Virus record (IMG/VR): IMGVR_UViG_2703718829_000003
Length of the DNA stretch: 8,514 bases
Direction: 5' to 3' (one strand)
Source: a virus
Lineage: Duplodnaviria > Heunggongvirae > Uroviricota > Caudoviricetes
The translations under genes were made by a program, and so were the position numbers. Positions 1 to 8,047 of this stretch are shown here, in pieces (positions within the stretch are counted from its first letter, which is position 1; every line of letters begins with the position of its first letter). Under the pieces are notes generated by a model. It made no database searches. It saw only the letters and a program-made list of their open reading frames with translations, and was not told the origin of the DNA.

Positions 1-1053
1 ATGACGTTACCACTAAGAGATTACTATCCTATTGAGCGCGCGGCAAAGTTATTAGACTGCGATATTGATGATCTTATTCATTGGGCTGTGACAGGCTGCA
101 TTCGTATTTGTATAAAAATTGAATCTGCATATGGAGTATTAAATATCCCAGATGAAAAAGATGTGGTTAATTTCGATTGTCTGCGTAAGTTTCTGGATTC
201 AGAACCATGTAAATCACGGTTATCTGACCTTGATGCCATTTCAGAAAGGGCGGCAGAACACCATGGTTTTAATTATATAAAAACCAAGTCGAGAATTATA
301 TTTGATTCAATGTGCGAATCTCTAAGTCATTCATATGTAGCGCCCAAATTTGGTGACATAGCAATTGATACTGCATTTGCTTTGTTAAATTATTATAACA
401 GGGGGTTATATTATGGGGAAAATTATCACATATATAGTGTATATCGAATAGCAACGGATGAAAGAGCTGTGGCAGTTGTACCACCAGTATTTAAAGGTAT
501 TCAAGAAAAATACCATAAGTATTTTGTTGAAATAGGCGGTATTTTCGCTTTGGGGGGAAGTTTTTTTGCCAACTATGATTTTAATAAGAAGTTTAAAGCC
601 AACCGAATAATTAATAGCAATATTATAATTGCTTCTGACGTTGATATACATATAGGAGTAATTGTTACTGAGGATGTTTCTTTTGATATTGGTGATTTAT
701 ATATCTTAAAGAGTGATTTTTTAAAAATACAAAATGCTACAAGCTCCAATAGCGAGTTAAGAAAAGATTATGTTAATCCATTGGCAGACACTTTATATTT
801 GTGTGCGGGTAACAATATATTAAGCTCTGAGGATGGAGAGAAAGATATATGCACCAATAAAAACAATATAGAACGATTATCTAAAACAATGAAGGATTTT
901 TTTCGTGCGATGCTTGTTATTCATTATAAAGAACTCGAAAACAATCCGGTAAAACTTGCTGATATATTGACCGCGGAAGCAAAAGAGGCAGGACTCAATA
1001 TGCGCTTTGATAAAAGTACTATATCAAGATGGATTAAGGCATCATCTCAGTAA
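1..1053 (+). CDS. Hypothetical protein, 350 aa; AT-rich cargo-like gene with HTH-like segments at both termini (possible DNA-binding regulator); function unknown
   Basis: Uninterrupted 350-codon ORF starting at the ATG at position 1 and ending at TAA 1051-1053. GC is visibly lower (roughly one third by eye) than the ~50% of the rest of the window. N-terminus (ERAAKLLDCDIDDLIHWAVTG) and C-terminus (GLNMRFDKSTISRWIK) resemble helix-turn-helix DNA-binding motifs. No catalytic motif recognised. Upstream signals lie outside the window. Confidence 0.6.
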   Translation: MTLPLRDYYPIERAAKLLDCDIDDLIHWAVTGCIRICIKIESAYGVLNIPDEKDVVNFDCLRKFLDSEPCKSRLSDLDAISERAAEHHGFNYIKTKSRIIFDSMCESLSHSYVAPKFGDIAIDTAFALLNYYNRGLYYGENYHIYSVYRIATDERAVAVVPPVFKGIQEKYHKYFVEIGGIFALGGSFFANYDFNKKFKANRIINSNIIIASDVDIHIGVIVTEDVSFDIGDLYILKSDFLKIQNATSSNSELRKDYVNPLADTLYLCAGNNILSSEDGEKDICTNKNNIERLSKTMKDFFRAMLVIHYKELENNPVKLADILTAEAKEAGLNMRFDKSTISRWIKASSQ

Positions 1054-3189: not shown

Positions 3190-5859
3190 ATGAAACATAA
3201 CACCAGAAAAGAGATTATTAACCGTCTTATTCGTGATTACAACTTTAAAGAAGAAAATAACTATCTTCGTTATGGTGTTTGTCCGCAATGTGGAAAGAAG
3301 GAACTGTTTACCAGTCTTGAGAGGCCGTACATCGTACACTGTGGCCGCGAAAATAAATGCGGTGCAGACCTGTTGACCAAAGAACTTTACCCGGATGTGT
3401 TTTCGTCATGGTCAGATCGCTATATCAGCACGAAAGACGATCCATACGCAGCGGCGGCAGCTTATCTTCAGGAAGCGCGCAATATTGCTGTGGAGCCACT
3501 GAAAGGGGCATTTACTCAGGAGCGATACCAGGACAAGGAAAGCGGCGAACAAGCCGCTACCGTGCGTTTTACGCTGGCTGACGGCGTGTGGTGGGAGCGC
3601 ATCATAGACCGACCGGAACGCTTCGCTCGCAAGGCGAATTTTTCCGGCAGCTACAAGGGGCTGTGGTGGGCTTATCCGGGAGCTGATTTAAGCAAGGCCA
3701 AAGAAATCTGGATTTGTGAGGGTGTCTTTGATGCCATCAGCCTTAACCAGAATGGCATTGCGGCCGTTTCTGTCATGTCTGCCGTGAACTACCCTGATAA
3801 GGCGCTGGAAGAACTGGCGAAGCTGTGCGGAGATAATCCCCGTCCGGTTATTGTGTGGGCGCTGGATAACGGGCGTGCGGGTGAGCGTTACGCGAAAAAA
3901 CATGCAGAACGCAGCGCCGAAGGCGGCTGGAGAACGGCAGCGGCGTTACCGGGTGAAAACAACAATAAACGCGACTGGAATGATTTACACATCGCCGGAA
4001 AGCTACGTGGCCATGATGTGAAAAGATACCGTTATTACGGTGATTTATTGCTGGCGAAATCTCCGAGAGATAAGGCACTAATAATGTTTTCCTTTCGTGA
4101 GCGAAAGGAATTTCATTTTCCCTTTGATAACCGTGTGTTCTGGTTCAAGCTGGATATTGAGCGCCATATGAAGGCTGTTGAGCGTGTCATTAATGAGCGA
4201 AATGTTGACGAAGATGAAGCGCGCAAAATTGCACTCAAGGAATCCGGCGCTGTAAAAGAAATCGCAAACTGTAACCCAGTGCCGCTTTATTACATTCGAA
4301 ACAATGATACGGATGAAGCATGGTATTACTTCCGCATTACATTCCCGGATGGTGCTACGGTGAAAAACACCTTTACATCAGGGCAATTAACATCCGCATC
4401 TGAATTTAAAAAACGTCTGTTGCACGTAGCAAAAGGCGGCATTTATACCGGAACGACTACGCAACTTGACGCATTAATAAAAAATGACCTTCCCGCAATA
4501 AAAGAGGTTATTGGTCAGGATTTTATCGGATACAACAAGGCCATTGGGGCATGGTTGTTTAATGATATTGCTGTTTACAAGGGTAAAACTTATGAAATCA
4601 ATGACGAAGATTATTTTGAAATTGATGGCATAAACGCAAAACCATTAAGCGAAAAACCCACATTACAGATTAACTACAAAAAACCGGATGAATTTACAAC
4701 GTCATGGGTGGAAGATCTCTGGCTGGCTTTTGGCGAAAAGGGAATTATTACCCTGGCTTTCTGGCTGGGTTCGCTGTTCAGTGAACAAATCCGGGATAAA
4801 GAAGAATCCTTCCCCTTCCTTGAAGTCACCGGGGAGCCCGGAACGGGTAAATCAACATTGATTGATTTTTGCTGGCGGCTGTGCGGTCGTGACAACTATG
4901 AAGGCGTAGATCCAACCAAAGGATCAGAGGCGGGCTGGAAGCGCACCTTTGGACAGGTCGCCGGATTACCTGTTGTTCTGATTGAAGCGGACCGGGGAGA
5001 CAATGCGCAAAAAAGAGGTGCGTTTGACTTCGATAACCTGAAAAGTCTCTATAACGGCGGTGGTATCGGCGTTCGTGGTGTTAAGGCCAACAATAACAAC
5101 ACCTATGACCCGGATTTTAAGGGCGCTATCGTAATTGCGCAGAATGCGCGGGTAAACGCCTCGCCGGCAATTATCGAGCGCCTGATACGTATATACACCG
5201 ATAAAAAACGCCATTCACCTGATACCCGACTGGCGGCGAGACGACTGGAACTCTACCCCGTCGAGAAGGTATCGGGGTTTATTCATCGGGCGGTAAGTCA
5301 GGAACGGGCGATTATGCAAACGTTCCTGGAAGTGTCGCCGGCTGAAACGGAACGCCTTTGCGGATGCGAAAATATTCGCCATCCCCGTATCGCCAAAAAT
5401 CACGCGCAACTTATCGCGCTGGTCAGGGCGCTTAAATGCGTTATTGATATCCCGGCTGAATGGCTTGATGCCACATGTCTGGAACTGGAACAAATGGCAA
5501 CAGCGCAGGTTAAAGCGGCGGCGGCTGATTTACCGGAAGTGGTGGAGTTCTGGGAAGCGTTCGACTTCCTGGACGGCATAACAAAATACGGTGTAAACCA
5601 CTACGGCAAGGGATGCTGCGAAGGGATTGCTATCAGTATTCCGCAACTGGCACAGGCAGCCGCCATTCACCGCGTGGAGATCCGAACCGATCGCGAAATG
5701 ATTGAGTTGCTCGGGGCTGGACGCTCCCGACCGTTGACAGGTCGTAAAACAATTCGTAGTGAGGTGTCCAGACAGGCAAACGCCGGAAAAGGGGTAGCCG
5801 AGGCCAGAGAGCCGGAAGTACTGAAATGCCGGATATTCAGTTACAAGGAGGGGCGTTAA
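3190..5859 (+). CDS. Bifunctional DNA primase / helicase replication protein (Zn-ribbon + TOPRIM primase domain, C-terminal P-loop helicase-type NTPase; P4 alpha-like), 889 aa
   Basis: N-terminal zinc-ribbon CPQCGKK...HCGRENKCG; TOPRIM-type acidic motifs ICEGVFDAISL and VWALDNGRAGERYA; Walker A VTGEPGTGKSTLID (nt 4831-4857) and Walker B-like VVLIEADRG. First ATG in frame is at 3190; the ORF-track start at 3166 is a GTG inside the upstream hairpin. Confidence 0.9.
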   Translation: MKHNTRKEIINRLIRDYNFKEENNYLRYGVCPQCGKKELFTSLERPYIVHCGRENKCGADLLTKELYPDVFSSWSDRYISTKDDPYAAAAAYLQEARNIAVEPLKGAFTQERYQDKESGEQAATVRFTLADGVWWERIIDRPERFARKANFSGSYKGLWWAYPGADLSKAKEIWICEGVFDAISLNQNGIAAVSVMSAVNYPDKALEELAKLCGDNPRPVIVWALDNGRAGERYAKKHAERSAEGGWRTAAALPGENNNKRDWNDLHIAGKLRGHDVKRYRYYGDLLLAKSPRDKALIMFSFRERKEFHFPFDNRVFWFKLDIERHMKAVERVINERNVDEDEARKIALKESGAVKEIANCNPVPLYYIRNNDTDEAWYYFRITFPDGATVKNTFTSGQLTSASEFKKRLLHVAKGGIYTGTTTQLDALIKNDLPAIKEVIGQDFIGYNKAIGAWLFNDIAVYKGKTYEINDEDYFEIDGINAKPLSEKPTLQINYKKPDEFTTSWVEDLWLAFGEKGIITLAFWLGSLFSEQIRDKEESFPFLEVTGEPGTGKSTLIDFCWRLCGRDNYEGVDPTKGSEAGWKRTFGQVAGLPVVLIEADRGDNAQKRGAFDFDNLKSLYNGGGIGVRGVKANNNNTYDPDFKGAIVIAQNARVNASPAIIERLIRIYTDKKRHSPDTRLAARRLELYPVEKVSGFIHRAVSQERAIMQTFLEVSPAETERLCGCENIRHPRIAKNHAQLIALVRALKCVIDIPAEWLDATCLELEQMATAQVKAAAADLPEVVEFWEAFDFLDGITKYGVNHYGKGCCEGIAISIPQLAQAAAIHRVEIRTDREMIELLGAGRSRPLTGRKTIRSEVSRQANAGKGVAEAREPEVLKCRIFSYKEGR

Positions 5860-5861
5860 AC

Positions 5862-6866
5862 ATGCCGATCAGAAAGATGCATGATGGGCGGTGGCTACTC
5901 GATATCAGGCCATGCGGACGTAAAGGGAAGCGCATCAGAAGAATATTTGACAAAAAATCTATAGCTACAGCAACTGAACGGTACATCATAGCGAACGCCG
6001 AAAAGCGCGAGTTTATACAGGGCTATCGCGACCGGAGAACCCTTAGCGATTTACTGGAATTGTGGTGGGTTTATCACGGTCAGCACAGGCGAAAGGCAAA
6101 CACGGATAAACAGCAGCTTGGCAAAATTATTAATGAGCTTGGAGCTGACATGTTTGCGGTAGAACTCGACAAATTAAAAATCATTGCATGGCGATCGCAG
6201 AAAATTGCGGAAGGATTAAAGCCGTCCTCAGCAAACAGATACATGAACAGATTATCGGGGATGTTTACAGCCCTGAAAAAGATCGGTTTGTGGGATGCAG
6301 AGCATCCGGTTCGTGGTATTCCTGTTCTTTATGTAAAGCAGCGGGAAATGGCCTTTTTATCAAAAAACGAGGTCACATTGTTGCTTGACGGGCTGAATGG
6401 AGATCAACGAAGGGTTGCGCTCTTGTGTCTTTGTACCGGAGCCCGCTGGAGTGAGGCCAGCAGATTGCATGGAGAGCAAATAGTTCATAATAGAATAACG
6501 TTTCTGGAAACCAAAAACGGTAGAAAAAGAACGGTGCCTGTGTCGCAGGAAATATGCGATGCCGTAAAAACAAAAGAAACCGGGCGACTGTTTGATGTGA
6601 AGTACAGAGAGTTTTGCCGGGCATTAAAAAAAATAAAACCCGATTTACCGAGGGGGCAGGCTGCGCATGTATTGCGGCATACATTCGCCAGTCACTTTGT
6701 GATGAACGGTGGCAACATTCTTGCGCTACAAAAAATCCTTGGGCATGCGACAATTCAGCAGACTATGGCATACGCACATTTTGCACCGGATTATCTGGCA
6801 GATGCCATGAGATTTAACCCGGTAGCCAACATAGTGATCACCGAAGAAAAAGAGCCAGCAGAGTAA
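5862..6866 (+). CDS. int: Tyrosine site-specific recombinase (small phage-type integrase, P2-Int-like size), 334 aa
   Basis: AGGAGG (5846-5851) upstream of the ATG at 5862, which lies 2 nt after the primase stop. Catalytic signature present: Arg box TGARWSEASRL, HVLRHTFASHF (H-x-x-R), and nucleophile Tyr in LGHATIQQTMAYAHFAPDY. N-terminus MPIRKMHDGRWLLDIRPCGRKGKRIRRIF is typical of small P2-type integrases. Confidence 0.9.
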   Translation: MPIRKMHDGRWLLDIRPCGRKGKRIRRIFDKKSIATATERYIIANAEKREFIQGYRDRRTLSDLLELWWVYHGQHRRKANTDKQQLGKIINELGADMFAVELDKLKIIAWRSQKIAEGLKPSSANRYMNRLSGMFTALKKIGLWDAEHPVRGIPVLYVKQREMAFLSKNEVTLLLDGLNGDQRRVALLCLCTGARWSEASRLHGEQIVHNRITFLETKNGRKRTVPVSQEICDAVKTKETGRLFDVKYREFCRALKKIKPDLPRGQAAHVLRHTFASHFVMNGGNILALQKILGHATIQQTMAYAHFAPDYLADAMRFNPVANIVITEEKEPAE

Positions 6867-6921: not shown

Positions 6922-7117
6922 GTTGGCCAGAACCAACGGTAACAGCAATGCAATGGTGGTCATATTGCAGTAGTGCCGCCATCAATTTTTTGCTTCCCCT
7001 GATTATCAGAAAGAGTCAAACAGTGGCGAGATACATTTCAATCACAGAGAGTTAATGAGAGTGATACAGAGTAAGTGGGTTTAATTAACATTTTAAAGGG
7101 TCGCGCTAAAGTTTGGG

Positions 7118-7431
7118 GGGGGGTGCGCAAAGCGGTTACAACGGTTACAAATTTAAAATCACTTATTTTTGCATTATATATCAATACATTATAACTGGTC
7201 GGATGAGTTACAAAAGCGGTTACAACGCGGTTACATGTAACCGTTTTGTTAGGTTACAGGCGGTTACAGGTTAAGTTTTTAATTGATTGATAATAAAGTG
7301 CTTTTTGAAACCTGTAACCGTTGTAACCGCAGTGTAACCGCAAAGCGGTTACAAACAATATCCATTAAAATCATGCTGTTAAGTGGTGTTTTTGACTGTT
7401 GTAACCGTTGTAACCGCTTTGCGCACCCCCC
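7118..7431. repeat. Iteron array (at least 13 copies of CGGTTACA / TGTAACCG) bounded by a perfect 33-bp inverted repeat; putative origin of replication
   Basis: The inverted-repeat arms 7118-7150 and 7399-7431 are exact reverse complements (GGGGGGTGCGCAAAGCGGTTACAACGGTTACAA). Octamer copies in + orientation begin near 7133, 7142, 7217, 7228, 7252 (GGTTACA only), 7261 and 7346; in inverted orientation at 7236, 7313, 7322, 7333, 7400 and 7409. A 16-bp perfect palindrome CGGTTACATGTAACCG lies at 7228-7243. AT-rich spacers separate the clusters. Confidence 0.5.
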
Positions 7432-7657
7432 ACCGGATTATGAGGCAGAGCCCCAAAACAACTGGCCTGACCTCTAACAAAAATGCAACATCAATCATTG
7501 ATTTTTTGGGGCTGTCAGTCACGGGGAGTTGCCCTGTTGTTTGGCAGAAAAATGAAGTATGTACATGCGCGGCGGGGATGGTAAAAAACGTAATACACGC
7601 GGCGCAGTTGCCATAAAAAATCTCTCAAAAGCACTCTTTTTGACGCTATTGTTCATC

Positions 7658-7686
7658 TGCACAAAAGTGCACAAATTTGCACAATT
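7658..7686 (+). repeat. Three tandem TGCACAA repeats with exact 10-bp periodicity, plus a fourth copy at 7749-7757; candidate operator
   Basis: TGCACAA starts at 7658, 7668 and 7678; GTGCACAAA recurs at 7749-7757. A related imperfect palindrome GTGCAtttagTGCAC occurs at 1617-1631. Confidence 0.35.
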
Positions 7687-8047
7687 TTTTAGAGTAACTT
7701 TTTGCCCATCCGGCCCAGTACTGGCGCGCCCGGAGGGCGATTTCGTGCGTGCACAAAAAACGGTGAGTTTTTCGCGCGCAGGTGACGGGGGAACAGCACG
7801 CGTTTCAGGGGGTAAATTACATTTTCGCTAAAGGCTGCGGGAATGCCCCGACCGGGTTAGTTTTATCGCCAGCCAGAGCCGTTCTTACGGCAAGAGAGAA
7901 CTGATACGGGGAATGTGACGAGTGAGCATGGGAACGGCGCGCCCGTGCGTAATACGCGGCGACTGCTGCGGGTTTATTTGATACAGCCAGAGGGGGGCGG
8001 CAGAAGATATAATAGGTTAAATTTCACACCAGTAAGAGGAGCGTGAT

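Follow-up and report, generated by a model that had tools for sequence, protein, structure and literature searches.

A candidate iteron replication origin enclosed by exact inverted repeats in a P4-like satellite island of E. coli

Results

Genetic context of the array

The window (the whole 8,514-nt stretch of viral DNA analysed, IMG/VR record IMGVR_UViG_2703718829_000003) is 100% identical to E. coli chromosomes, and in strain JP538 it forms part of a 12.5-kb island between gcd and hpt. From the left, this island comprises a junction integrase, a 350-aa ORF, AlpA, an 'Icd-like' ORF, small ORFs and an 889-aa Toprim primase, followed in its right part by a second tyrosine recombinase gene (int2), the iteron array described here (7118–7431), a 90-aa ORF, Ogr/Delta, a P2-family capsid homologue and MazEF. 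Because of AlpA, a C4 immunity RNA, Ogr/Delta and the P2-type capsid gene, we assign the window to a P4-like satellite island in the E. coli chromosome. Rfam models placed isrK at 1772–1853 and the C4 antisense RNA at 1879–1966, both inside the ORF that RefSeq calls 'host cell division inhibitor Icd-like', and 1772–1966 is a P4-type RNA immunity region. The junction integrase is a gene other than int2 and adjoins gcd in JP538 and tRNA-Thr in strain Eco_24-2013. The 350-aa ORF directly after it (window 1–1053) had no significant match in Pfam, PHROG or NCBIfam. The homologue of the P2-family major capsid protein and a 236-aa ORF upstream of the capsid gene lie outside the window (L001, 15781–18398), in the same region as the MazEF toxin-antitoxin pair at the right end of the island. 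Neither a P4 cos site nor DNA homology to P4 was recognisable in the island.

The proposed initiator is encoded on the plus strand at 3190–5859. It is an 889-aa Toprim primase with a P-loop helicase domain (Pfam Toprim_2/3, weakly DUF5906) that matches PHROG 1139 'DNA primase' from end to end (E = 7e-296), and its phage homologues are primases of P2-like phages such as ESSI2_ev239, RSY1 and phiCTX (41–51% identity). With P4 alpha, BLASTP aligned only 27 aa in the Walker-A/P-loop stretch, hhalign of the two C-terminal domains gave a probability of 0.2, and no sequence link was found between the primase C-terminus and P4 alpha or solved structures. In the structure model of the primase (pLDDT 89), the C-terminal ~230 aa are predicted with confidence as a bundle of helices that terminates in a beta-alpha-alpha-beta-beta unit. 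Sibling E. coli islands encode primases that are 94–100% identical over the first 450 aa and 63–78% over the last 200 aa, and the last ~200 aa diverge together with the array and int2. This places a module boundary within the primase gene, and the primase C-terminus and the array appear to form a replicon cassette that is swapped as a unit between sibling islands. Since int2 diverges with the array in the same manner as the primase C-terminus, the divergence between sibling islands alone cannot discriminate primase from int2. A homologue search with the C-terminal fragment of the primase alone returned only 8 fragments, and a contig scan with a single primase gave 8 loci, of which two carried the array.

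The int2 gene (5862–6866, plus strand; Pfam Int_N and Phage_integrase) starts 3 nt after the primase stop codon, and the array lies 252 nt past the int2 stop, downstream of the primase-integrase operon as the original prediction had placed it. Int2 shares 82% identity with integrases of P88-like P2-family phages. Its possible roles in the satellite include helper-site integration, multimer resolution or interference.

Architecture of the array

The array (7118–7431, 314 bp) combines iterons with a terminal inverted repeat and is a candidate origin or cis-acting replication region; RefSeq annotates no gene over it, and an Rfam gathering scan matched no known RNA in it. It contains 13 copies of GGTTACA within 7133–7416, out of 14 in the whole window, where 0.79 would be expected; none of 200 shuffles reached 14. 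Twelve of the 13 are exact CGGTTACA 8-mers and the remaining copy, at 7251, is AGGTTACA, so that the earlier count of at least 13 copies of an 8-bp motif holds for GGTTACA but was slightly generous for the octamer. A further, degenerate copy (GAGTTACA, 7206–7213) brings the number of GTTAC cores in the array to 14. Read from left to right, the iterons are oriented + + / + + + − + + / − − − + / − −, so those of the left half point mostly rightward (+) and those of the right half mostly leftward (−), with a near-helical spacing of 9–12 nt within clusters. The array thus has the organisation first described for it, with the motif in both orientations and grouped in clusters, four in number, that are separated by three AT-rich spacers (69–76% A+T, compared with 54% for the window).

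The left arm (7118–7150, plus orientation) consists of a G-run, a GCGCAAAG box and two iterons (CGGTTACAA CGGTTACAA) 9 nt apart. The right arm (7399–7431, minus orientation) is its exact reverse complement over all 33 nt, and both the enclosing inverted repeat and the iterons within its arms, two in each, are as originally reported. Exact complementarity ends at 7117/7432 on the outside and at 7151/7398 on the inside, and the inverted repeat reaches 36 nt at 97% identity. Between the arms lie, in order, spacer 1 (7151–7205; 55 nt, 76% A+T), an inner left cluster of six iterons (7206–7268; + + + − + +), a central spacer (7269–7312; 44 nt, 75% A+T) that is a candidate melting region, an inner right cluster of four iterons (7313–7353; − − − +) and spacer 3 (7354–7398; 45 nt, 69% A+T). 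The window has only two exact matches to the IHF consensus and both fall in the array, one in spacer 1 (7179–7191, plus strand) and one in the central spacer (7280–7292, minus strand); spacer 3 holds an IHF-like site with one mismatch (7369–7381). No DnaA boxes, GATC sites or 13-mers were found in 7118–7431. Clusters of GGTTACA in the island and in 8 kb of flanking DNA on either side are confined to the array. The literature searched for the iteron motif yielded primer sequences only, and the motif is absent from the supplements of the PICI paper.

The inner left cluster also holds a 16-nt palindrome (CGGTTACATGTAACCG, 7228–7243). At 7227–7244, the back-to-back iteron pair GCGGTTACATGTAACCGT is followed by TTTTGTT, and the two together score as an intrinsic-terminator-like hairpin on the plus strand. 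This hairpin could serve as a stop for read-through from the primase-int2 operon.

A cos-like element downstream of the array

A non-coding element of ~165 nt (7657–7823) is located ~225 nt downstream of the array. It is ~83% identical to a stretch found in ~400 E. coli genomes; in strain ZH193, the example inspected, the counterpart belongs to a P2-like prophage, where replication genes flank it on one side and the portal gene on the other. P88-like phages, which also carry an int2-like integrase, have the element at 76–81% identity, and GGTGACGGGGGAACAGCAC at 7781–7799 matches the 19-nt P2/P4 cohesive end at 14 of 19 positions in direct reading. The element is likely a cos site of the helper type, with P88-like phages as likely helpers of the satellite. 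The element starts with three direct TGCACAA repeats (7658, 7668 and 7678) exactly 10 nt apart, and the middle of this stretch (7658–7684) contains a small palindrome that was flagged as terminator-like.

Homologous arrays follow related primases in other genera

The array architecture, with two iterons per arm, two inner clusters and three AT-rich spacers, is retained downstream of primases with 41–77% identity to that of the window. Such arrays occur in Yersinia (L137; primase identity 77%, iteron CGGTTACA, int2 present), Salmonella (L138; 60%, GAGGTTACA, without int2), Pectobacterium (L140; 54%, [CT]GTTACA, without int2), a P2-like prophage of Providencia (L139; 52%, CGTTACA), in which int2 is not beside the array and a P2-type integrase gene is found at the prophage end, and a beta-proteobacterial satellite of Comamonas with Ogr and AlpA (L011; 41%, AGGTTAC, without int2). 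The arrays of these five genera measure ~300 bp each and share one plan, and most are not accompanied by a second integrase. In the Comamonas, Salmonella and Pectobacterium loci and in the viral contigs L016, L020, L042 and L090, the array directly follows the primase terminator. The order from primase to array is constant, while int2 precedes the array (window), follows it (L004) or is absent. The Providencia locus (L139, 7282–8060) has a complete CGTTACA-type array with what appear to be partial GGTTACA-type arrays on its two sides, one a right half and the other a left half, so that two iteron dialects stand side by side behind a single primase gene.

Across 11 aligned arrays, invariant positions are concentrated in the GTTAC cores (39/70, compared with 32/244 elsewhere; odds ratio 8.3, p = 2e-12), and columns 7280–7282 and 7286–7289 (TAA...ATTG), inside the central IHF-like site, are also invariant. 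The base or bases 5' of the GTTACA core vary in concert within an array (CGGTTACA, RGGTTACA, GAGGTTACA or CGTTACA), as would be expected if one protein reads all copies. The arm design, a YCGGAAA-like box with two iterons, is common to 10 related arrays, whose arms are 70–100% identical within an array; the non-iteron box differs between arrays and matches within each. The symmetry originally singled out as unusually exact is exact in the window, but judged from these alignments the perfect 33-nt arms characterise the E. coli lineage, not the whole family. Some P2-like relatives with the same primase family have no such array: none was found in the DNA following the primase gene of phiCTX, of ESSI2_ev239, or of prophages in Citrobacter and Denitratisoma.

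A pattern scan of IMG/VR for GGTTACAANGGTTACA that took no account of genes, with a locus defined as at least 7 GGTTAC within 400 bp, found at least 29 loci, and about 20 of the 29 were at or overlapped the 3' end of a primase-helicase gene. Among the IMG/VR matches listed, 13 arrays adjoin a primase of the window-type family, and int2 is nearby in 6 of these 13.

GGTTACA arrays beside unrelated replicases

GGTTACA arrays flanking AT-rich DNA were also found in IMG/VR where they adjoin or overlap the 3' ends of genes for primase-helicases from unrelated families, namely PrimPol-VapE, PrimPol-AAA_25, DUF3854-DUF5906, D5_N and Toprim proteins unrelated to the window primase (for example L020, L034, L040, L053, L083, L099, L100, L117, L121 and others). 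They represent at least six mutually unrelated primase-helicase lineages on viral contigs of 33–69% G+C. The first 120 IMG/VR matches listed in a search with a GGTTACA dimer comprised 25 arrays, 24 of them bidirectional, compared with two arrays (both one-directional tandem repeats) and none among the matches listed for two composition-matched control dimers. In L053 the array is part of the reading frame itself, and L040 has two tandem copies of the entire array. The C-termini of these unrelated replicases had no BLAST or profile similarity to that of the window primase.

Discussion

We propose, with a probability of roughly 80%, that the array at 7118–7431 is the vegetative replication origin of the P4-like satellite island, or at least its only initiator-bound cis-acting site. 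The position of arrays at the 3' ends of primase-helicase genes in a scan blind to gene content, together with the layout shared with the origins of SaPIs and PICIs, supports the reading as an origin. The original prediction further held that the origin is recognised by the adjacent primase-helicase, and comparison lends weight to this view, because elements without the second integrase also have arrays of this architecture behind homologous primases. From these comparisons, we infer both the binding of the array by the primase-helicase and its activity as an origin.

The neighbouring recombinase gene offers two other explanations of the same DNA. The array could be a recombination site of Int2, either an attP with arm-type sites, as suggested in the original prediction, or a site for multimer resolution: int2 ends only 252 nt upstream, clusters of arm-type sites adjoin int genes in P2-like phages, and IHF sites such as those of the array are typical of attP. 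However, among the 66 E. coli genomes that carry it, each with query coverage of 80% or more, the array is always intact and internal and never halved, and island genes flank it on both sides while a different integrase gene occupies the tRNA-Thr or gcd end. Salmonella, Pectobacterium and Comamonas, as well as several viral contigs, have homologous arrays without int2. In phage P88_4B11, which encodes the nearest phage homologue of Int2 (82% identity), the repeats at the int end read GTGGACA and 9 kb of DNA contain no GGTTACA cluster; the window holds a single GTGGACA, 4 kb from the array. Since the array is not split into attL and attR upon integration and the repeats do not follow the integrase family, we rejected the attP reading and consider a recombination site at this position very improbable; int2 is a neighbour of the array and not part of the origin. 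An even smaller chance is given to an invertible promoter switch of the fimS type, in which the 248-bp segment between the 33-nt inverted repeats would be flipped by the neighbouring recombinase. An exact inverted repeat around ~250 bp, a nearby tyrosine recombinase and promoter-like hexamers inside the enclosed segment would suit such a switch, but an artificial query with inverted interior had a full match (at least 80% coverage) in none of the 476 genomes that carry part of the region, out of 5,426 E. coli genomes searched, whereas the native form was full in 53; inversion in a rare subpopulation might escape notice in such consensus assemblies. In addition, the orientation relative to the primase is fixed in arrays that have diverged to 69–76% identity and in other genera, and relatives without a recombinase still keep the inverted arms. 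The switch was rejected on the lack of any full-length inverted form among the 5,426 genomes.

Two further explanations leave the array a cis-acting site of another kind. It may be bound by the primase and act as an enhancer or copy-control locus, comparable to crr or to handcuffing iterons, with strand opening elsewhere in the island. In size and in lying immediately 3' of the primase operon it agrees with P4 crr, a sequence needed in cis but distinct from the start site, and iteron arrays of plasmids can act in copy control. We nevertheless regard this as unlikely, given that neither the 12.5-kb island nor its flanks contain a second GGTTACA cluster, which leaves no separate iteron-bearing ori to enhance, and that the array itself holds three AT-rich spacers flanked by opposed iterons, the design of SaPI/PICI origins. 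Hardly credible, by comparison, is a packaging (cos) or late-promoter control region read by the helper terminase or by Ogr/Delta, to which the arms, whose G-run and following (G/C)AAAG-like box bear a faint likeness to P2/P4 cohesive ends, and the Ogr/Delta gene downstream of the array might point. The array had no match in 50,697 phage records and contains no TGT-N12-ACA dyad, and the absence of these and of a P4 cos led us to reject it as a cos or Ogr site; the element at 7657–7823, which P88-like helpers have beside the portal gene, is the better cos candidate.

The recurrence of GGTTACA beside dissimilar replicases bears on which protein reads the iterons. Because arrays stand next to replicases whose C-termini are dissimilar, the reader might be something other than the C-terminal domain of the primase, or other than the primase altogether. 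The presence of arrays by at least six unrelated lineages, their excess over control words and the closely related P4 iteron GGTGAACA also lead us to raise, tentatively and as a less probable view, that GGTTACA may be an origin word in wide use, not an iteron peculiar to a single primase family. If so, an ancient and diverged origin-binding fold may have been shuffled between replicases while its DNA specificity was kept, or a common reader that is not a replicase may be involved; convergence is a further possible cause. Should the recurrence of this 7-mer beside unrelated replicases be upheld, it would bear on how self-loading helicases recognise origins.

Returning to the array as an origin read by the adjacent primase-helicase, we propose the following hypothetical sequence of events, in which (i) the 889-aa protein would bind the 14 GTTACA-core iterons as a sequence-specific initiator, probably via its C-terminal domain; (ii) the opposed iteron halves, an arrangement seen directly in the sequence, would place the protein assemblies face to face across AT-rich DNA; (iii) IHF, acting at the spacer sites, which are present and conserved, would bend the DNA and gather the clusters; (iv) one of the AT-rich spacers would melt, allowing the helicase, probably in the form of two rings facing in opposite directions, to load itself and the Toprim domain to prime. 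By analogy with P4 alpha and SaPI Rep, the outcome would be bidirectional theta replication without DnaA; neither a DnaA box nor GATC occurs in the array. A precise and testable candidate origin would thereby become available for a large family of uncharacterised primase-helicases, whose clustered homologues number more than 900 and occur in P4-like satellites and P2-like prophages, both within and outside Enterobacterales. The array may also be of use for annotating satellites, for predicting replicon incompatibility of co-resident satellites and helpers, and for building minimal satellite replicons.

Set against known origins, the classic satellite and plasmid organisation invoked in the original prediction is borne out by the SaPI/PICI layout and by the similarity to P4 crr, whereas P4 differs in primase family, iteron word and two-site layout. 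In the P4 record, crr is placed directly 3' of the alpha gene, ahead of attP and int, and spans 300 bp with ten TGTTCACC octamers that face both ways and form pairs 9 nt apart. Both elements are satellites of P2-like phages and both have a block of ~300 bp, 3' of a primase-helicase gene, with bidirectional iterons of 7–8 nt paired 9 nt apart; DnaA boxes are lacking in both, the array precedes an integrase gene in the L004 arrangement, and the words themselves are alike (GGTGAACA, the reverse complement of the P4 iteron, and GGTTACA). In contrast to P4, the primase described here is not alpha-like by sequence, the iteron is (C)GGTTACA(A) instead of the type-1 iteron TGTTCACC, a single iteron site replaces ori and crr lying 4.5 kb apart, and the symmetry is inverted instead of consisting of two 120-bp direct repeats.

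Short inverted words around or beside AT-rich DNA also characterise the origins of the SF3 helicases SV40 T antigen and papillomavirus E1, a design that permits two helicase rings to sit head to head. The likeness to the array is an analogy only, with no sequence relationship, and these viral origins are smaller (~60–100 bp with 4–6 sites) and are read by an origin-binding domain located N-terminal to the helicase.

The origins of SaPIs and PICIs consist of 6–12 short iterons immediately 3' of the initiator gene, with at least two oppositely oriented iterons on each side of an AT-rich centre, and the iterons are read by the winged-helix C-terminal domain of a self-loading helicase (PMC6092414; PMC9371898). 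For EcCICFT073, a Gram-negative PICI, the pri-rep-ori segment was shown to replicate (PMC6092414). The array shows all sequence-level features of these origins, that is, the number of iterons, the 3' position, the AT-rich DNA and the opposed iterons. Its short iterons likewise lie 3' of the primase/initiator gene, with a 1-kb recombinase gene between the two in the window, its AT-rich region has at least two iterons in opposite directions on each side, and the proposed initiator is a self-loading helicase fused to a primase, as SaPI/PICI initiators are fused to or paired with one. It differs in that this initiator belongs to the PHROG 1139 family of Toprim primase-helicases common to P2-like phages, in that four iteron clusters and three AT-rich spacers replace two sets and one AT-rich region, and in that its ends are formed by long inverted repeats, which include an additional conserved box. 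The array is thus most likely a new example of a well-known kind, an iteron origin located 3' of a self-loading primase-helicase in a phage satellite.
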